Positions 22,675 through 51,554 of a stretch of 64,000 bases of DNA are shown here, piece after piece. How positions within the stretch are numbered: the first letter of the stretch is position 1; the number at the start of each line of letters is the position of its first letter. Source of the stretch: Escherichia coli (GTDB taxonomy: Bacteria > Pseudomonadota > Gammaproteobacteria > Enterobacterales > Enterobacteriaceae); the NCBI RefSeq assembly GCF_003334405.1, contig NZ_QOWM01000017.1, one strand, 5' to 3'. Made by a program: the position numbers and the translations under genes. Under the pieces are notes generated by a model. The model ran no database searches. It had not been told where the DNA came from and worked only from the letters and a program-made list of their open reading frames with translations.

Positions 22675-25236
22675 TTACACCAGGCTCTTCAAGCGATAAA
22701 TCCACTCCAGCGCCTGACGCGGGGTGAGTGAATCCGGATCAAGATTTTCCAGAGCTTCGACCGCAGGCGAAGTTTCTTCTGGTACTGACAGCAAAGACAT
22801 TTGCGTACCATCCACTTGCGTAGCGGCGGCGTTCGGCGAAATGCTTTCCAGCTCACGCAGCTTTTGCCGTGCGCGCTTAATAACCTCTTTTGGCACGCCT
22901 GCCAGAGCTGCAACCGCCAGGCCGTAGCTTTTGCTCGCCGCGCCATCCTGCACGCTGTGCATAAAGGCAATGGTGTCGCCGTGCTCCAGTGCATCGAGAT
23001 GCACGTTAGCGACGCCTTCCATTTTCTCCGGTAACTGGGTCAGCTCGAAATAGTGGGTAGCAAATAACGTCAATGCCTTAATCTTATTCGCCAGATTTTC
23101 CGCGCACGCCCACGCCAGCGACAGACCATCGTAGGTGGACGTTCCACGCCCGATCTCATCCATTAACACCAGACTGTATTCGGTGGCGTTATGTAAAATA
23201 TTGGCGGTTTCAGTCATCTCCACCATAAAGGTTGAGCGCCCGGACGCCAGGTCATCTGCCGCGCCTACGCGGGTAAAGATGCGATCGATAGGTCCAATCT
23301 CGACTTTTTGTGCCGGTACATAGCTGCCGATGTAGGCCATCAGCGCAATCAGTGCGGTCTGGCGCATATAGGTACTTTTACCGCCCATGTTCGGACCGGT
23401 GATGATCAACATGCGGCGCTGCGGCGACAGATTCAGCGGGTTGGCGATAAATGGCTCATTCAGTACTTGTTCAACTACCGGATGGCGACCTTCGGTAATG
23501 CGAATGCCCGGTTTATCAATGAAGGTCGGGCAGGTGTAGTTCAGGGTATAGGCCCGTTCCGCCAGGTTAACCAGCACGTCGAGTTCCGCCAGCGCGCTCG
23601 CGCTCTGTTGCAACGCTTCCAGATGCGGCAACAGCAGGTCGAACAGCTCTTCATAAAGCTGTTTTTCCAGTGCCAGTGCTTTGCCTTTTGAGGTGAGAAC
23701 TTTATCTTCGTACTCTTTTAGCTCTGGAATGATGTAGCGCTCGGCGTTTTTCAGCGTCTGGCGACGCATGTAGTTGATGGGTGCCAGATGGCTTTGCCCA
23801 CGGCTGATTTGAATGTAGTAGCCGTGCACCGCATTAAAGCCAACTTTCAGCGTGTCCAGGCCGGTACGTTCACGCTCGCGGACTTCCAGACGCTCCAGAT
23901 AATCGGTCGCGCCGTCAGCCAGCGCGCGCCACTCATCCAGCTCTTCGTTATAGCCCGATGCGATAACACCACCGTCGCGTACCAGCACCGGCGGTGTGTC
24001 GATGATTGCTCGCTCCAGCAGATCGCGCAGCTCGGCAAACTCGCCCATCTTCTCACGTAGCGCCTGTACCGGTGCACTATCGACAGTTTCTAACTGCGCA
24101 CGCAGCTCCGGCAGTTGCTGGAAAGCGTGGCGCATACGGGCCAGATCGCGTGGGCGAGCAGTTCGTAAAGCCAGACGTGCCAGAATACGTTCCAGGTCGC
24201 CGACCTGACGCAGTACCGGCTGTAGCCCGGCGGTGAAATCCTGCAATGCGCCAATAGTTTGCTGGCGCTCAAGCAACACGCGGGTATCGCGCACTGGCAT
24301 ATGCAGCCAGCGTTTCAGCATACGGCTGCCCATCGGCGTGACGGTGCAGTCGAGCACAGAAGCCAGCGTATTTTCCGCACCACCCGCCAGGTTCTGGGTG
24401 ATTTCCAGATTACGACGCGTCGCGGCATCCATAATGATGCTGTCCTGCTCACGTTCCATGGTGATGGAACGAATATGCGGCAGAGTCGTACGTTGGGTAT
24501 CTTTCGCATACTGCAACAGACAACCGGCAGCACAAAGTCCGCGCGGCGCGTTCTCGACGCCAAAACCGACCAGATCGCGGGTCCCAAATTGCAGATTCAA
24601 CTGCTGGCGCGCGGTGTCGATTTCAAACTCCCACAGCGGGCGACGGCGCAGGCCGCGACGGCCTTCAATTAACGACATTTCAGCAAAATCTTCTGCATAC
24701 AGCAGTTCCGCAGGATTAGTGCGTTGCAGTTCTGCCGCCATCGTTTCGCGGTCAGCCGGTTCGCTCAGGCGAAAACGCCCGGAACTGATATCCAGCGTCG
24801 CGTAGCCGAAACCTTTGCTGTCCTGCCAGATAGCCGCCAGCAGGTTGTCCTGACGCTCCTGCAACAGGGCTTCATCGCTGATGGTGCCTGGCGTAACGAT
24901 ACGCACAACTTTGCGCTCAACCGGACCTTTGCTGGTCGCCGGATCGCCAATTTGTTCGCAGATGGCAACGGACTCTCCCTGATTCACCAGTTTGGCGAGA
25001 TAGTTTTCCACCGCATGGTAGGGAATCCCCGCCATCGGGATCGGCTCTCCCGCCGAAGCACCGCGTTTGGTCAGTGAAATATCCAGCAGTTGCGACGCGC
25101 GTTTTGCGTCGTCATAAAACAGTTCATAAAAATCACCCATCCGGTAAAACAGCAGGATCTCGGGATGCTGGGCTTTCAGCCTGAGATACTGCTGCATCAT
25201 GGGCGTATGGGCGTCGAAATTTTCTATTGCACTCAT
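22675..25236 (-). CDS. mutS: DNA mismatch repair protein MutS
   Basis: Track ORF 853 aa; Walker [10 protein letters not shown]; full-length. Confidence 0.97.
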
Positions 25237-25482
25237 GGGGTTATGTCCGGTTCCCTGATATTAAATGGGGTGTGATGGTTTTTATTTTCGTTGTAATCAC
25301 ATAAGGCGCACATGATACCGGAGTTAATCATTTCAGGGGAAGAAGCGAACGGCGAGTTCTTGATGCTGGTTCCGGGAAAGATGCTGTTTTGCAGCTTTTG
25401 CGTGATGCTTATGAAGCAAGTACGCAAAATTGTATCGGTTGGCTAACCCTTCTTCTTTGGAGTCATAGTGCCCTTTAAGATT

Positions 25483-25505
25483 AAGATGTAATATAAATAC
25501 ATCTT
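25483..25505. promoter_or_regulatory. NsrR-type operator palindrome upstream of ygbA
   Basis: AAGATGTAATATAAATACATCTT (AAGATGTA ... TACATCTT inverted repeat) 18 bp upstream of the ygbA start; ygbA is a known NsrR target. Confidence 0.55.
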
Positions 25506-25522
25506 AATGAGGTGGAGGCAGC

Positions 25523-25876
25523 ATGTCCGGCAAGCGTATCTCTCGTGAAAAACTGACGATTAAAAAAATGATCGATCTTTATCAAGCGAAATGCCCGCAG
25601 GCGTCAGCGGAGCCGGAGCATTACGAGGCGTTGTTTGTTTACGCGCAAAAGCGGCTGGATAAATGTGTGTTCGGCGAAGAGAAACCAGCCTGTAAGCAGT
25701 GTCCGGTGCACTGTTACCAGCCTGCAAAGCGTGAAGAGATGAAACAGATTATGCGTTGGGCCGGGCCGAGAATGCTGTGGCGTCATCCGATCTTAACCGT
25801 GCGTCATCTCATCGATGACAAGCGTCCGGTGCCAGAACTGCCGGAAAAATATCGTCCGAAAAAACCTCATGAATAG
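25523..25876 (+). CDS. ygbA: NO-responsive small protein YgbA (117 aa)
   Basis: Track ORF; conserved position between mutS and fhlA. Confidence 0.85.
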   Translation: MSGKRISREKLTIKKMIDLYQAKCPQASAEPEHYEALFVYAQKRLDKCVFGEEKPACKQCPVHCYQPAKREEMKQIMRWAGPRMLWRHPILTVRHLIDDKRPVPELPEKYRPKKPHE

Positions 25877-25912
25877 TATGCCGGACAGGCAGATCTGTCC
25901 GGCAATTTGCAG

Positions 25913-27991
25913 TTAAATCAATGCCGATTTATCAATTCCCAGCCGCTTCATCCGTGACAGCAGGGTCGTGCGTTTCAGCCCCAGACGTTGCGCAGCGCCT
26001 TTAGGCCCGGCAACCACGCCGTTGGTTTCTTTCAGCACGCGCACAATCAACTGATATTCATCTTCGCCCTCCAGGGCGACAACCGTTGCGGCAGGCGGCG
26101 TTTCAGGTTCCGGTAAAACAATATCTGGCAATGACAGCTGCAGCACGTTACCGCGTGTTAGCAATACCGCGCGCTCAATGACGTTTTCCAGTTCGCGTAC
26201 GTTACCCGGCCACTCCATGTTGCTCAAGGTGCGCAGCGTCTCGGCAGGAATGCTGTCGATATTGCGCCCCAGACGACGGGCAATTTTGAAGGTAAAGGCT
26301 TTCGCCAGCAGCGGAATATCTTCCGGACGCTCGCGTAGTGGCGGCAGGTGAATCGGGAATACGTTCAGGCGGTAATAGAGATCGCTACGGAACTCACGGT
26401 CGGCGACCATTTTTTTCAGATCGCGGTTAGTCGCGGCGATTAGACGCACGTCCGTCTGAATGATTTTGTTGCTGCCGAGACGTTCAAACTCCTGTTCCTG
26501 CAATACACGCAGCAACTTCGGCTGTAACTCCAGTGGCATATCGCCCACTTCGTCGAGGAACAGGGAGCTTTTATCCGCCAGTTCAAAACGACCGATACGC
26601 TGGGCGCTGGCACCGGTAAAAGCCCCACGCTCATGACCAAACAGATCGCTTTCCAGCAATCCGGCAGGCATCGCCGCGCAGTTCATTTTGACCATGCGGC
26701 GATTATTACGCCCACTGAGATTATGGATCGCACGGGCAATCAGCTCTTTACCCGTGCCAGTTTCACCGAGGATCAGCACGGTACTGTCACTTTGCGCCAC
26801 CATTTCAACTTGTTTAAGCACGCTGTACATGGCTTCGCTGCGGCCAATAATCTCGCCAAATTCACTATCAACATTGTTGAGCTGCTCGGTCAGGGCGAGG
26901 TTTTCATCAACCAGCCGTTCTTTCAGACGATGGATTTCCTGATAGGCGAGGGCGTTATCGACAGCGATTGCCACACGTTCGGCAATCTGGCGCAGTAAAT
27001 TCAGATTGGTAGTGGTAAACACTTTCTCTTCGCATTGCGCCAGTTTCAGCACGCCCAGCATGGTGTCGCCAGACATCAGCGGTAACAGGCACAAGGTTTG
27101 AATCTGGTTGCCCCAGGTGTCGAACAACATGCGTTCATAGGGGGCTAAATCGTCCCGCTCGTGGAGATTGATCAGCAGCATCTCTTTACTTTTGAACACG
27201 CGTTCGGTGAGGGTTCCGGCTTCATCGACTTCGCTCTGTTCGTGGGCGGGATGCTGTTTATCAAGATAGTGAGTGGAGTAGATGTTGAGTTTGTTTTTAC
27301 GGTGGCTGCGTAAGACGATACTGATATCGTCAATGTCGAAATAGTAATGGATTTCTTTGGCGACTTCGCTGACCAGTTCGTCCATATCCAGGCGGGAAAG
27401 CACCGCGTTGGTGATGGCGACCAGGATGCGGAAGTTATCGCGTTCCCGGCATAACAACTCATAGTCGACATTGTTAACGACGCGGCTCTGGATTTGTTCG
27501 GTGACGACAGAAACGATCTGCGTAAATGTTTGCAGACGATTGAACTCTTTTTCGCTCCAGGGGCGATCGTCATAACGAATAAATTCACAGCCACCAAAAA
27601 TATGCCCTTCCGCCGCCAGTGGCATCAGGCAATAGTGACCAAATTTTGGGTATAGCCCACCTGCGTCCAGCTGCGGCCAGGTTTCACAAAATTCTTCGTA
27701 ACTGCAATGCAGCGTATCAGGGCGCGACAAAATGCTGCGTACCGGACCGTGTGCCAGAACAGTTTCGTCTTCATATTTAATGGGGGTGTCTTTTTCACGC
27801 GACGCGTAATAAGACGCACGTTGAGTCTGCGCTTGCCACAACACAATAGCCGCGTTGTCGGCGAGCGCAGAACGCTTTACCAGTTGCGAAAGAGCCTCAC
27901 ACAGCGAGGCCAGATCGGGCTGCTGCAATAGTGTCCGAGTGATGTCGAACAACCCTTGTTGTCCGAGATCACTCATCGGTGTATATGACAT
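25913..27991 (-). CDS. fhlA: Formate hydrogenlyase transcriptional activator FhlA (sigma54 enhancer-binding protein)
   Basis: Track ORF 25913..28027; start moved to the ATG giving MSYTPMSDLGQQGLF (692 aa); AAA+ motifs GETGTGKE and GAFTGA, C-terminal HTH. Confidence 0.95.
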   Translation of the reverse strand: MSYTPMSDLGQQGLFDITRTLLQQPDLASLCEALSQLVKRSALADNAAIVLWQAQTQRASYYASREKDTPIKYEDETVLAHGPVRSILSRPDTLHCSYEEFCETWPQLDAGGLYPKFGHYCLMPLAAEGHIFGGCEFIRYDDRPWSEKEFNRLQTFTQIVSVVTEQIQSRVVNNVDYELLCRERDNFRILVAITNAVLSRLDMDELVSEVAKEIHYYFDIDDISIVLRSHRKNKLNIYSTHYLDKQHPAHEQSEVDEAGTLTERVFKSKEMLLINLHERDDLAPYERMLFDTWGNQIQTLCLLPLMSGDTMLGVLKLAQCEEKVFTTTNLNLLRQIAERVAIAVDNALAYQEIHRLKERLVDENLALTEQLNNVDSEFGEIIGRSEAMYSVLKQVEMVAQSDSTVLILGETGTGKELIARAIHNLSGRNNRRMVKMNCAAMPAGLLESDLFGHERGAFTGASAQRIGRFELADKSSLFLDEVGDMPLELQPKLLRVLQEQEFERLGSNKIIQTDVRLIAATNRDLKKMVADREFRSDLYYRLNVFPIHLPPLRERPEDIPLLAKAFTFKIARRLGRNIDSIPAETLRTLSNMEWPGNVRELENVIERAVLLTRGNVLQLSLPDIVLPEPETPPAATVVALEGEDEYQLIVRVLKETNGVVAGPKGAAQRLGLKRTTLLSRMKRLGIDKSALI

Positions 27992-31682: not shown

Positions 31683-31712
31683 ATCGCCTCCCATTAACTA
31701 TTGCCAGCTACA

Positions 31713-31729
31713 AGCAATAATTGTGCCAG
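31713..31729 (-). promoter_or_regulatory. Candidate sigma54 (-24/-12) promoter of the hyp operon
   Basis: Minus-strand reading CTGGCACAATTATTGCT (GG-N10-GC) ~35 bp upstream of the hypA start. Confidence 0.5.
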
Positions 31730-31750
31730 TGTTGATTATCCCTGCGGTGA

Positions 31751-31800
31751 ATAATGTCGATGATGTCGAAATGACACGTCGACACGGCGACGAAATTCAT
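31751..31800. promoter_or_regulatory. Candidate FhlA upstream activating sequence in the hyp-hyc divergent region
   Basis: ATAATGTCGATGATGTCGAAATGACACGTCGACACGGCGACGAAATTCAT; shares TGTCGATGA / TGTCGAAATGACA elements with two other sites in the window. Confidence 0.5.
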
Positions 31801-31840
31801 CTTTAGCTTAAAAATCTCTTTAATAACAATAAATTAAAAG

Positions 31841-31858
31841 TTGGCACAAAAAATGCTT
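31841..31858 (+). promoter_or_regulatory. Candidate sigma54 (-24/-12) promoter of the hyc operon
   Basis: TTGGCACAAAAAATGCTT (GG-N10-GC) ~40 bp upstream of the hycA start. Confidence 0.55.
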
Positions 31859-31893
31859 AAAGCTGGCATCTCTGTTAAACGGGTAACCTGACA

Positions 31894-32355
31894 ATGACTA
31901 TTTGGGAAATAAGCGAGAAAGCCGATTACATCGCACAGCGGCATCGTCGCCTACAGGACCAGTGGCACATCTACTGCAATTCGCTGGTTCAGGGGATCAC
32001 GTTATCGAAAGCGCGCCTGCATCACGCCATGAGCTGCGCGCCGGACAAAGAACTCTGTTTCGTCCTTTTTGAACATTTTCGCATTTACGTCACCCTGGCG
32101 GATGGCTTTAACAGCCACACCATCGAGTATTACGTCGAAACAAAAGATGGCGAAGACAAACAGCGGATTGCGCAGGCGCAACTGAGCATTGACGGCATGA
32201 TTGATGGCAAGGTCAACATCCGCGATCGCGAACAGGTTCTGGAACACTATCTCGAAAAAATCGCTGGCGTTTACGACAGCTTATACACCGCTATTGAAAA
32301 CAATGTGCCGGTGAATTTAAGCCAACTGGTAAAGGGACAAAGCCCGGCAGCATGA
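31894..32355 (+). CDS. hycA: Formate hydrogenlyase regulatory protein HycA
   Basis: Track ORF 153 aa; first gene of the hyc operon. Confidence 0.95.
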   Translation: MTIWEISEKADYIAQRHRRLQDQWHIYCNSLVQGITLSKARLHHAMSCAPDKELCFVLFEHFRIYVTLADGFNSHTIEYYVETKDGEDKQRIAQAQLSIDGMIDGKVNIRDREQVLEHYLEKIAGVYDSLYTAIENNVPVNLSQLVKGQSPAA

Positions 32356-32403: not shown

Positions 32404-32460
32404 CGTGTCGATGAGTGTCGAAAATGACATTTCATCGGCATGTTTTCGTCAAAAATGACA
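32404..32460. promoter_or_regulatory. Candidate second FhlA UAS in the hycA-hycB spacer
   Basis: CGTGTCGATGAGTGTCGAAAATGACATTTCATCGGCATGTTTTCGTCAAAAATGACA, repeating the TGTCGATGA / TGTCGAAAATGACA elements. Confidence 0.5.
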
Positions 32461-32479: not shown

Positions 32480-33091
32480 GTGAATCGTTTTGTAATTGCT
32501 GACTCCACGCTCTGTATCGGCTGCCACACTTGTGAGGCCGCCTGTTCAGAGACGCATCGCCAGCACGGCCTGCAATCAATGCCGCGCCTGAGAGTGATGC
32601 TGAATGAAAAAGAATCTGCGCCGCAGCTCTGTCACCACTGTGAAGATGCACCCTGCGCGGTGGTCTGCCCGGTTAACGCCATCACCCGCGTCGATGGGGC
32701 CGTGCAGTTGAATGAAAGCCTGTGCGTAAGCTGCAAGCTGTGCGGCATCGCCTGCCCGTTTGGCGCAATTGAATTTTCCGGCAGCCGTCCGCTGGATATT
32801 CCGGCAAACGCCAATACCCCGAAAGCGCCACCGGCACCGCCTGCTCCGGCGCGTGTCAGCACATTGCTTGACTGGGTGCCAGGTATTCGCGCGATCGCCG
32901 TCAAATGTGACCTTTGTAGCTTTGATGAACAAGGTCCGGCCTGCGTGCGGATGTGCCCGACTAAAGCCCTGCATCTGGTGGATAACACCGATATCGCCCG
33001 CGTCAGCAAACGTAAGCGTGAGCTGACCTTTAACACGGACTTTGGCGATCTCACCTTGTTTCAGCAGGCTCAAAGTGGAGAGGCTAAATGA
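32480..33091 (+). CDS. hycB: Formate hydrogenlyase Fe-S subunit HycB (ferredoxin-like)
   Basis: Track ORF 203 aa; multiple CxxCxxCxxxCP clusters. Confidence 0.95.
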   Translation: MNRFVIADSTLCIGCHTCEAACSETHRQHGLQSMPRLRVMLNEKESAPQLCHHCEDAPCAVVCPVNAITRVDGAVQLNESLCVSCKLCGIACPFGAIEFSGSRPLDIPANANTPKAPPAPPAPARVSTLLDWVPGIRAIAVKCDLCSFDEQGPACVRMCPTKALHLVDNTDIARVSKRKRELTFNTDFGDLTLFQQAQSGEAK

Positions 33092-47283: not shown

Positions 47284-48417
47284 CTACATCGGCAATGTTT
47301 TCAACAATCCAAATGCCTCTTTCATCCGATCCTCACTGACCACAAAGGCGCGAAGCTGGTCAGCATCGTCAACGCCGCGCGCCACCATTCCCTGGCGTTC
47401 GGTATTAATTTGCCAGCGTAAATCCTGACGCTGGGTTTCGCCTGCCAGATGCAGCGGTAATTCCGGCGTTTTGATTTTCACCAGCATCGCCGGGAGTTTC
47501 AGCGGCGTGTTATTGCCGAGAAGATTTTTTGCCAGCACCATCGCGCTAAGTTGAATCGGCTGGAGGAACGGCAATACCTGACCGTTAATTTCCGCGCAAT
47601 CGCCCAGCGCGTAAATATCGGTATTACTGGTTTGCAGATAACTATCGACGCAAACGCCGCGATTAATCGTCAGCCCGGCGCGTCGTGCCAGGGCGGTTTC
47701 CGGGCGCAGTCCGGTGGCGGCAATTACCGCATCCACTTCGATGCTACGCTGGCGGTCCAGCGTTGCCAGAATGCCAGAATCCGTTTTTTCCAGCCCCTGC
47801 AACTGAGATTTCAACAGCAGATGAACACCCATCTCCGTCAACCGATGCTGCAAGCGGCTGCTTACTTCCGGTGGCATTAACGACGCCAGAATACTGGCAG
47901 CGTTGTCGATTAGCGTGACCGCTTTGCCTGCACGACAAAAATCCATCGCCAGTTCGCTACCAATCAAACCACCGCCAACAATCAACACGCGTCGGGCATC
48001 CCGCAGTTGCGTTTCACAGGCGCGATACTCTTGCTGACTATTTAACGTCAGCATTAACTCACGCCCAGGCACAGGCGGGACAAAGGCGCTGGCACCGGTT
48101 GCCAGCACTAACTTGTCGTATTGCCACTGATTATTCTGGCTTTTCACCACATGGGCTTCGGCATCGATATCCGTCACCCAGGTGTGCGGAAACAGGCGCA
48201 GATTAAACTGCTCGGCAAATTCACCCGCCGTCTGGCGGGTAAGGTCGTCGGCACGTTGCCCCTGACTGATAACATGGCTGAGGTCAGGTTTGTTGTACTC
48301 ATCTATGCTGTCGGCGGCAATCAAGGTTAATGGAATAGTGGCGTCCTGTTTGCGAATATTTTTCACCAGTTGTCGGGCGGCGAAGCCCGAACCAATGATC
48401 ACAATGCCGTTGCTCAT
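47284..48417 (-). CDS. norW: NADH:flavorubredoxin oxidoreductase
   Basis: Track ORF 377 aa; FAD motif IIGSGFA; 4-bp overlap with norV. Confidence 0.95.
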
Positions 48418-49853
48418 TTTGCCTCCGATGCCAGTTCGTCAAAGACGTCTTTGCCGAGGGAGCATTCCGGGCACAGGAAGTTATCCGGGACTTCACTCCA
48501 CGGCGTTCCTGGTGCAACGTCCTGCATTGGCTCGCCTTTTGCCGGATCGTAAATCCACCGGCAGACGCTGCACTGCATCCGTGGGCCGAGGTCAGCCGTC
48601 GTGGCGGCAGAGGTTTCTTCTTTAACTACCGTATTCACCGTGCTCTGCGGCAGCGGCGCGAGCGCCCACTGACGGGCGATTTCGCGACCGTGTTCACGGC
48701 ATAACTCCAGAGCGTCCTGGTCTGGTCGCCATTTGGCTTTCAGGCTGAGCGACATTTCGAAACCCGCATCCTGCAGGCGCGTGGAAAGACGATCCACCGC
48801 ACCGCCGCTCCAGCCGTGAGAGCCGAAAGCACTGGCGCGTTTGTTACGGAAGCGTAAACCAGTCATCTCCTCCACCAGCCCGGCGATTTTCGGCATCATC
48901 ACGTTATTCATCGTCGAAGTGCCGACCAGCACGCCTTTTGAGCGGAAGACATTGGTCAGGATTTCGTTTTTATCGCTTCGGGCGACGTTGAAAATTTTCA
49001 CCGCCACGCGTGGGTCGGTTTCCGCAATCCCCTGGGCGATAGCGTCAGCCATCATGCGGGTGTTATTCGACATGGTGTCGTAGAAAATGGTGATTCTGTC
49101 TTCCTGATAATCAGCCGCCCATTTCAGGTACAGCTCGACAATTTGCGTCGGGTTATCGCGCCAGACCACGCCGTGGGAGGTCGCTATCATATCGACTGGT
49201 AAGTTAAAGCCCAGGATCTCGGTAATTTTCGGCGTTACCAGGCGGCTGAACGGCGTCAGGATATTGGCGTAGTAACGCTGGCACTGCTCGAAAAGCTCCG
49301 TCTGATCCACTTCATCGTTGAACAGATGCTCGTCACAGTAGTGCTGACCGAAAGCATCGTTACTGAACAGCACCGCGTCGCCTGTCAGGTAAGTCATCAT
49401 GCTGTCCGGCCAGTGCAGCATTGGTGTTTCGACAAAAATGAGCTGTTTGCCGTTGCCGATATCCAGCGTGTCGCCAGTTTTCACCACATTAAAATTCCAC
49501 TCCGGATGATGGTGATGACCATTTATCGAGTCGATAGCGTTGGCAGTACAGTAGATCGGCGTATCGGGAATTTGTGCCATCAGTTCGGTCAGCGCCCCAG
49601 CGTGGTCCTCTTCTGCATGGTTAATCACGATGTAATCGATATCCGCCAGATCGATTTCATTACGCAGGTTCTGCACAAATTCGCGGCTGAATTTATGGTC
49701 GACGGTGTCGATCAGCACGTTTTTTTCTTCGCGGATGAGGTAGCTATTGTAGCTGCTGCCGCGCAGCGTTTTATATTCCGTGCCGTGAAAATCACGCACT
49801 TCCCAGTCACGTTGACCAACCCAATGAATGTTATTTTTCACCACAATAGACAT
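48414..49853 (-). CDS. norV: Anaerobic nitric oxide reductase flavorubredoxin
   Basis: Track ORF 479 aa; metallo-beta-lactamase + flavodoxin domains and C-terminal rubredoxin (CSVC...CPEC). Confidence 0.95.
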
Positions 49854-49898: not shown

Positions 49899-49916
49899 AT
49901 TGCAGATTGCGTGCCA
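49899..49916 (-). promoter_or_regulatory. Candidate sigma54 promoter of norVW
   Basis: Minus-strand reading CTGGCACGCAATCTGCA (GG-N10-GC) ~45 bp upstream of the norV start. Confidence 0.6.
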
Positions 49917-49971
49917 GTTTTTTATCTGATTGTTTTTACTCTATAAATAAAATTATGCCCATTAATGAGTA

Positions 49972-50027
49972 GTCAAAATGACTATCAATCAAATGGTCGA
50001 TATGACAATATCTATAGTCAAATTGAC
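49972..50027. promoter_or_regulatory. Three NorR binding sites (GT-N7-AC) in the norR/norV divergent region
   Basis: GTCAAAATGAC (49972-49982), GTCGATATGAC (49996-50006), GTCAAATTGAC (50017-50027). Confidence 0.7.
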
Positions 50028-50039
50028 AGTGAGGCAAAG

Positions 50040-51554
50040 ATGAGTTTTTCCGTTGATGTGCTGGCGAATATCGCCATCGAATTGCAGCGTGGGATTGGTC
50101 ACCAGGATCGTTTTCAGCGCCTGATCACCACGCTACGTCAGGTGCTGGAGTGCGATGCGTCTGCGTTGCTACGTTACGATTCGCGGCAGTTTATTCCGCT
50201 TGCCATCGACGGTCTGGCAAAGGATGTACTCGGTAGACGCTTTGCGCTGGAAGGGCATCCACGGCTGGAAGCGATTGCCCGCGCCGGGGATGTGGTGCGC
50301 TTTCCCGCAGACAGCGAATTGCCCGATCCCTATGACGGTTTGATTCCTGGGCAGGAGAGTCTGAAGGTTCACGCCTGCGTTGGTCTGCCATTGTTTGCCG
50401 GGCAAAACCTGATCGGCGCACTGACGCTCGACGGGATGCAGCCCGATCAGTTCGATGTTTTCAGCGACGAAGAGCTACGGCTGATTGCTGCGCTGGCGGC
50501 GGGAGCGTTAAGCAATGCGTTGCTGATTGAACAACTGGAAAGCCAGAATATGCTGCCAGGCGATGCCACGCCGTTTGAAGCGGTGAAACAGACGCAGATG
50601 ATTGGCTTGTCCCCTGGCATGACGCAACTGAAAAAAGAGATTGAGATTGTGGCGGCGTCCGATCTCAACGTCCTGATCAGCGGTGAGACTGGAACCGGTA
50701 AGGAGCTGGTGGCGAAAGCGATTCATGAAGCCTCGCCACGGGCGGTGAATCCGCTGGTCTATCTCAACTGTGCTGCACTGCCGGAAAGTGTGGCGGAAAG
50801 TGAGTTGTTCGGGCATGTGAAAGGAGCGTTTACTGGCGCTATCAGTAATCGCAGCGGGAAGTTTGAAATGGCGGATAACGGCACGCTGTTTCTGGATGAG
50901 ATCGGCGAGTTGTCGTTGGCATTGCAGGCCAAGCTGCTGAGGGTGTTGCAGTATGGCGATATTCAGCGCGTTGGCGATGACCGTTGTTTGCGGGTCGATG
51001 TGCGCGTGCTGGCGGCGACTAACCGCGATTTACGCGAAGAGGTGCTGGCAGGGCGATTCCGCGCCGATTTGTTTCATCGCCTGAGCGTGTTTCCACTTTC
51101 GGTGCCGCCGCTGCGTGAGCGGGGCGATGATGTCATTCTGCTGGCGGGGTATTTCTGCGAGCAGTGTCGTTTGCGGCAGGGGCTCTCCCGCGTGGTATTA
51201 AGTGCCGGAGCGCGAAATTTACTGCAACACTACAGTTTTCCGGGAAACGTGCGCGAACTGGAACATGCTATTCATCGGGCGGTAGTTCTGGCGAGAGCCA
51301 CCCGCAGCGGCGATGAAGTGATTCTTGAGGCGCAACATTTTGCTTTTCCTGAGGTGACGTTGCCGACGCCAGAAGTGGCGGCGGTGCCCGTTGTTAAGCA
51401 AAACCTGCGTGAAGCGACAGAAGCGTTCCAGCGTGAAACTATTCGTCAGGCACTGGCACAAAATCATCACAACTGGGCTGCCTGCGCGCGGATGCTGGAA
51501 ACCGACGTCGCCAACCTGCATCGGCTGGCGAAACGTCTGGGATTGAAGGATTAA
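50040..51554 (+). CDS. norR: NO-sensing sigma54-dependent activator NorR
   Basis: Track ORF 49965..51554; start moved to [12 protein letters not shown] (504 aa); GAF domain, AAA+ GETGTGKE / GAFTGA, C-terminal HTH. Confidence 0.95.

Follow-up and report, generated by a model that had tools for sequence, protein, structure and literature searches.

A conserved NsrR-type palindrome upstream of ygbA in a K-12-type segment of the Escherichia coli chromosome

The ygbA locus and its upstream palindrome

The stretch of DNA that was analysed here, which is called the window in the following, comprises 64,000 nucleotides and represents an E. coli K-12-type chromosome segment. Alignment with one MG1655 assembly gave 41 mismatches over 45 kb, the part from 25237 to 25900 shows 100% identity with MG1655 as well as with many further strains, and the ygbA region is present in 5,420 of the 5,426 complete E. 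coli genomes. The gene coordinates were transferred from the annotation of the matching K-12 record, with the offset verified. On one side of ygbA lies mutS (22675-25236, minus strand), while its downstream neighbor is fhlA, likewise on the minus strand, which is followed by the hyp, hyc, asc and hydN-hypF genes.

The ygbA coding sequence itself extends on the plus strand from 25523 to 25876 and encodes a protein of 117 amino acids, as indicated by its open reading frame, the RefSeq annotation and Pfam. Its Shine-Dalgarno sequence GGAGG can be read directly at 25514-25518 (plus strand), and a G-rich block is kept at this offset in the orthologues (positions 30-34). RefSeq names the product a “nitrous oxide-stimulated promoter family protein”, and the comparison with the Pfam family PF11756 (YgbA_NO) resulted in a full-length match with E = 1.4e-40, in which residues 4-106 align to positions 1-104 of the 106 model positions. 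YgbA is thus a member of this family, small and rich in cysteines, with a conserved CxxCxxxC motif, for which the literature searched, newer work from 2016 onward included, did not reveal a function.

Some variation is seen around the gene. In the E. coli strains JNE12-007, SWHEFF_68, STIN_95 and ZJ3920 (loci L004-L007), the similarity to the window stops at query position 628, ygbA has 114 instead of 117 amino acids, and the next annotated gene is not fhlA but one for a TOBE domain-containing protein, so that the ygbA-fhlA junction can be regarded as a variable insertion point within E. coli. Between mutS and ygbA, RefSeq places a hypothetical open reading frame of 44 amino acids (25312-25446, plus strand), which is extended or absent in some strains. 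No changes occur in the segment 25271-25342 even among the E. coli alleles that have diverged most, although the ygbA-proximal region is polymorphic; this invariance probably reflects the mutS promoter or leader. Only 6 nucleotides past the mutS stop codon, there is a perfect inverted repeat with the arms 22641-22651 and 22659-22669, which is probably the mutS terminator.

In front of ygbA, the sequence AAGATGTAATATAAATACATCTT occupies the positions 25483-25505, as read directly from the window. The preliminary description had called this a near-perfect inverted repeat located 18 bp upstream of ygbA, and both statements hold. When written as an 11-1-11 inverted repeat, AAGATGTAATA-T-AAATACATCTT, 9 of the 11 mirrored positions are complementary, and a repeat search found it enclosed by an extended perfect palindrome (25480-25508), whose 11-nucleotide arms 25480-25490 and 25498-25508 are 100% complementary with 7 nucleotides between them. 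The ATG at 25523 minus 25505 gives the 18 bp, which corresponds to 17 intervening nucleotides, and the distance from the end of the site to the Shine-Dalgarno sequence is 8 nucleotides. At 3 places the window contains a perfect inverted repeat whose arms measure 11 nucleotides or more and whose loop does not exceed 10 nucleotides, compared to a mean of 0.1 in shuffled sequences. Besides the repeats next to mutS and ygbA, the third of these is a longer perfect palindrome centred near 15840 (approximately 15827-15852).

NsrR sites and other NO-linked loci in the window

NsrR is an NO-sensing iron-sulfur repressor of the Rrf2 family (PMC5320621), and the assignment of ygbA to its regulon, as made in the preliminary description, is well founded in the literature. 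Repression of ygbA by NsrR in E. coli K-12 was reported by Bodenmiller & Spiro 2006, as cited in PMC5320621, PMC1274295 and PMC2884951, and binding of NsrR to the ygbA promoter in a K-12 ChIP-chip study by Partridge et al. 2009, as cited in PMC5320621. According to a personal communication in Rodionov et al. 2005 (PMC1274295), the genes hmp, ytfE and ygbA are repressed by NsrR (YjeB) of E. coli via this inverted repeat. In a Salmonella nsrR mutant, the ygbA mRNA was increased 31.8-fold (Gilberthorpe et al. 2007, PMC2884951), and in E. coli CFT073 ygbA belonged to the genes with the strongest induction by nitrate-derived NO (Mehta et al. 2015, PMC5320621). The latter study lists 27 NsrR sites of the 11-1-11 type in CFT073, ygbA included, together with the ChIP-seq peak status of each site (PMC5320621 Table 4). 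No NsrR ChIP-seq peak was obtained at ygbA in CFT073, whose allele differs from that of the window at 3 positions, and the authors regarded this as a probable false negative (PMC5320621). NsrR control of ygbA and the exact site are already known, as ygbA has been reported as a regulon member since 2005-2006 and its site stands in published tables. As a discovery the site is therefore of little value, and we regard it as a calibration point, at which regulator and genomic context were correctly named from the letters of the sequence alone.

For a comparison with an experimentally derived NsrR matrix, a symmetrised weight matrix was derived from those E. coli CFT073 sites that lie under a ChIP-seq peak (16 distinct sequences; PMC5320621 Table 4), with ygbA excluded. 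The absence of ygbA from the training set is due to its ChIP-negative status in CFT073. The training 23-mers had themselves been picked by MEME/PatSer within the ChIP peaks, which makes this an experiment-anchored matrix rather than one derived from footprints. With this matrix, the site at 25483-25505 scores 22.8 bits and ranks first of the about 64,000 positions of the window, the next match reaches 17.1 bits, and all others stay below 14 bits. The ygbA site would take the third place among the 16 training sites, above 14 of them. This result was unchanged when hycB was left out of the training, and also when all Table 4 entries except ygbA were used. In 200 mononucleotide shuffles of the window the top score was 21.4 bits, so that 22.8 bits was not reached in any of them. 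The NsrR consensus AAGATGYATTTNAAATRCATCTT (AAGATGYATTTnAAATRCATCTT) is matched by the ygbA site with 2 mismatches, which is the sole match in the window at up to 3 mismatches, and none of 100 dinucleotide shuffles of the window yielded a consensus match at this threshold. The match of the ygbA site to matrix and consensus is specific and unique in the window. The outcome that the preliminary description had named as a refutation, a missing match to an experimentally derived NsrR matrix, clearly did not occur.

A further NO-responsive module is found at a distance from ygbA. It consists of norW (47284-48417) and norV (48414-49853), both on the minus strand, and the divergently oriented norR (50040-51554, plus strand), all according to the K-12 record annotation. 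The norV promoter region (49901-50027, minus strand) was read from the sequence and contains three NorR boxes of the type GT-N7-AC, namely GTCAATTTGAC at 50027-50017, GTCATATCGAC at 50006-49996 and GTCATTTTGAC at 49982-49972. These are located upstream of a sigma-54 -24/-12 element (TGGCAC-N5-CTGCA; TGGCACGCAATCTGCA, 49916-49901) that is directed at norV. The NorR box consensus and the three-site architecture at norV have been described before (PMC1274295), and the divergent arrangement of norR and norVW with three GT-N7-AC boxes in front of a sigma-54 promoter conforms to it. The norRVW genes are 21.8-26 kb away from the ygbA operator and the norV/norR promoter region 24.4 kb, which agrees with the distance of about 24 kb that had been given. 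The preliminary description had also counted two NO-responsive loci in the window, and both are indeed present, but they are not the only ones, as an NsrR site is found upstream of hycB as well (32422-32444).

This site, AAATGACATTTCATCGGCATGTT, is the second-best matrix match of the window with the above-mentioned 17.1 bits, or 14.3 bits when it is excluded from the training. It is situated in the hycA-hycB intergenic region, 35 nucleotides upstream of the hycB GTG start codon at 32480, and it is identical to the ChIP-seq-positive hycB NsrR site of CFT073 (PMC5320621), which makes it a third NO-linked regulatory site in the window, in front of formate hydrogenlyase genes. The hypA promoter was NsrR-bound in both the K-12 ChIP-chip and the CFT073 ChIP-seq study (PMC5320621). 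In the hypA-hycA intergenic region (31683-31893), no 11-1-11 matrix match above about 10 bits was found, and the match nearest to it, with 10.3 bits, lies inside hycA (31960-31982). NsrR binding at hypA may thus involve a single 11-bp half-site, or it may belong to the same peak as the hycB site.

Conservation of the site and the readings it argues against

For the comparison among orthologues, one genome per species was searched with the back-translated ygbA coding motif CKQCPVHCY, which resulted in 120 loci, 93 of which possess an Enterobacterales-type YgbA N-terminus and enough upstream sequence. As the query consists of the coding motif only, this test of conservation is independent of the operator. 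A matrix match of at least 10 bits, located 12-24 nucleotides upstream of the start codon and most often 18 nucleotides, was found in 83 of the 93 Enterobacterales-type ygbA orthologues, and in nearly all of these 83 loci, which comprise 1-15 kb each, this operator is the single best match. In four further orthologues the site seems to lie farther from the start codon, which is probably due to the choice of a wrong start codon. Seven clear exceptions among the Enterobacterales have no site, which are four Morganella (L036, L060, L106, L127), Mixta theicola (L067), Cedecea (L045) and Klebsiella sp. BIGb0407 (L013), with best scores of -0.7 to 9.6 bits in the 250 nucleotides upstream. In these lineages, ygbA may be controlled differently or NsrR may be missing. 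Among the loci obtained by the coding-motif search, the YgbA homologues from Bacteroidetes, Enterococcus and Desulfuromonadales have no NsrR-type site upstream.

When the 83 site-anchored orthologues are compared, the flanks retain about 0.1 bit per column, in contrast to 1.4-2.0 bits at the operator positions 1-2, 6-8, 11-12, 15-19 and 22-23. Moderate conservation is seen just outside the 23-mer, with T/A at the positions 0 and 24-25. In more than 20 genera the site has thus retained both its position and its sequence while its surroundings were randomised, and this persistence of high information between diverged flanks indicates that the operator is kept by selection. The tight conservation of NO-responsive ygbA control across the Enterobacterales supports a real role of the gene in nitrosative stress.

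Within E. coli, eight alleles with 92-100% identity contain four versions of the site, which vary only at the motif positions 4, 17 and 20. These are low-information positions at which a change is tolerated by the NsrR matrix, and the scores of the four versions lie at 20.5-22.4 bits. The species thus has at least four natural alleles of the operator. The DNA that immediately flanks the operator is more polymorphic than the operator itself among these alleles. The CFT073 entry AAGGTGCATTTATATTACAACTT in Table 4 is the B2-type allele written as its reverse complement, and it is this B2/CFT073-type allele that is the version without an NsrR ChIP-seq peak. The K-12 allele of the window differs from the CFT073 allele at all three variable positions (4, 17 and 20) and is more symmetric; it is also the most symmetric of the four E. 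coli alleles. The complementary T7/A17 state of the K-12 site is a minority state among Enterobacterales, occurring in 11 of 70 distinct sites.

These comparisons bear on the question whether the palindrome acts as a nucleic-acid hairpin and not as a protein operator, such as a stem-loop in the 5' UTR of ygbA with an effect on translation or on the stability of the mRNA, or a cruciform in the DNA. The 11-bp perfect arms do fold, with a minimum free energy of -17.4 kcal/mol for a 61-nucleotide RNA (z = -2.8 relative to shuffled sequences), and a transcript could begin upstream of the palindrome. What the orthologues keep, however, is base identity and not pairing. The pair 7/17 is a non-complementary T/G in 59 of the 70 distinct sites, the pair 4/20 is complementary in only 20 and the pair 11/13 in only 26 of these 70, and the perfect stem of K-12 represents a minority state. 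Moreover, the conserved bases fit a matrix that was derived from unrelated NsrR-bound promoters, and the Shine-Dalgarno sequence (25514-25518) lies outside of the hairpin. As mirrored positions are so often non-complementary in the orthologues, we rejected a hairpin function, which we consider highly improbable.

Just as improbable is the idea that the site belongs to another regulator, such as IscR or a further Rrf2 protein, FNR or NarL/NarP, and resembles NsrR sites only by coincidence. The Rrf2 family does recognise AT-rich palindromes of comparable length, and ygbA is induced by nitrate under anaerobic conditions, in which FNR and NarL/NarP also play a part (PMC5320621). Against this stands the specific and unique match to the NsrR matrix and consensus, and also the fact that the deletion of nsrR alone derepresses ygbA in Salmonella (PMC2884951). 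The type-1 consensus of IscR, ATASYYGACTRWWWYAGTCRRSTAT, is not matched anywhere in the window at up to 3 mismatches, and a type-1 IscR operator at ygbA was therefore rejected. For FNR, four box matches with at most 1 mismatch were counted in the window, compared to 2.3 expected, and none of them falls into the ygbA promoter. An FNR box in the promoter was therefore also rejected, as the count is not above chance and the only nearby match, TCGATCTTTATCAA at 25572-25585 with 1 mismatch to TTGAT-N4-ATCAA, falls within the coding sequence of ygbA. That the element is a functionless chance palindrome, as short ones arise in AT-rich intergenic DNA, is the least probable reading and was rejected, since neither the 100 dinucleotide nor the 200 mononucleotide shuffles reached the observed match and since the persistence of the site in more than 20 genera amid randomised DNA effectively refutes such a reading.

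Promoter geometry, repression and comparison with known systems

The reading of the 23-bp palindrome at 25483-25505 as the operator by which NsrR represses ygbA is almost certainly correct. The matrix match, its uniqueness in the window, the conservation and an embedded -10 signature are direct observations, and the in vivo binding, the derepression and the induction by NO or nitrate are taken from the literature.

The orthologue profile has three features that are unexplained by NsrR binding alone, namely T12, A11 and T7/A8. The motif positions 7-12 read TATTAT in the orthologues, and T7, A8 and T12 are near-invariant among the 83, with 2.0, 2.0 and 1.9 bits, respectively. Position 12 is a T in 82 of the 83 orthologues, yet it is the free center of the motif and can be A, C, G or T among the NsrR training sites. 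Position 11 is an A in 94% of the orthologues, where the NsrR consensus has a T. The best-conserved letters of the positions 7-12 coincide with -12T, -11A and -7T of a -10 hexamer, and the sole conserved patch upstream of the operator in the 83 orthologues, T (54%), T (55%) and G (80%) at the positions -16 to -14, would place a -35 element 17 bp further upstream. From T7/A8/T12 and this TTG we infer a -10/-35 pair that overlaps the operator. In the window, the putative -10 hexamer would be TAATAT at 25489-25494 (plus strand), in the left half and the center of the operator, and the weak -35 candidate TAGTGC at 25466-25471 (plus strand), where most orthologues have TTG. A simple sigma-70 scan of 25150-25950 detected no promoter with at least 9 of 12 matches, and the -35 of E. 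coli is weak (TAGTGC). The supplements of Kim et al. 2012 contain no entry for a ygbA transcription start. The conservation among the orthologues predicts a ygbA promoter of the sigma-70 type whose -10 element and start site (about 25500-25502) are overlapped by the operator.

Such an arrangement suggests how repression could work. A dimer of NsrR would bind to the two 11-bp half-sites of the operator, with the putative -10 sequence TAATAT (25489-25494) inside the left half-site and the operator center, and with the right half-site over the predicted ygbA start around 25500-25502. Given this overlap with -10 and start, bound NsrR would exclude the RNA polymerase by occlusion. When NO damages the NsrR cluster, the repressor would leave the DNA and ygbA could be transcribed. 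The exact -10, -35 and start positions are predicted, and repression by promoter occlusion, which depends on them, is a prediction as well.

It is conceivable that the operator carries two overlapping signals, the NsrR palindrome and the -10 element in its left half-site and center, and that the natural E. coli alleles set the strength of repression by phylogroup. The overlap would explain the fixed central T and the non-consensus A11 in the Enterobacterales ygbA sites, but we consider this proposal as a whole rather doubtful, and if true it would refine a known system slightly and not represent a new one. Beyond prior knowledge, only the breadth of the conservation in the Enterobacterales and the predicted -10 overlap of the operator are additions.

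IscR is a paralogue of NsrR in the Rrf2 family, and both proteins recognise AT-rich palindromes of about 25 bp as operators within promoter regions. The consensus of the type-1 operators of IscR has no match in the window at up to 3 mismatches, as described above. The site analysed here is the same element at the same locus as the K-12 ygbA NsrR site (Bodenmiller & Spiro 2006; Partridge et al. 2009; both cited in PMC5320621), with no difference in kind. The NorR/sigma-54 control of norVW and the NsrR control of ygbA are both NO-responsive and both located in the 64-kb window, but they have neither sequence nor mechanism in common. NorR is an enhancer-binding activator that uses three GT-N7-AC boxes upstream of a sigma-54 promoter, whereas NsrR is a repressor that would act, according to the predicted geometry, on a sigma-70-type core promoter.

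The closest comparison is the ytfE operator AAGATGCATTTAAAATGCATCTT, a near-consensus sequence that is the strongest NsrR site in the CFT073 ChIP-seq (PMC5320621) and that shares the 11-1-11 architecture with the ygbA site. When the latter is read on the minus strand (AAGATGTATTTATATTACATCTT), 19 of the 23 positions are identical, the outer AAGATG/CATCTT blocks are the same, and the four differences are found at the inner positions 7, 13, 15 and 17 (minus-strand orientation). In contrast to ytfE, the inner bases of the ygbA orthologues are restricted to the hexamer TATTAT/TAATAT with its fixed central T, and the simplest explanation for this constraint is an overlapping -10 element.
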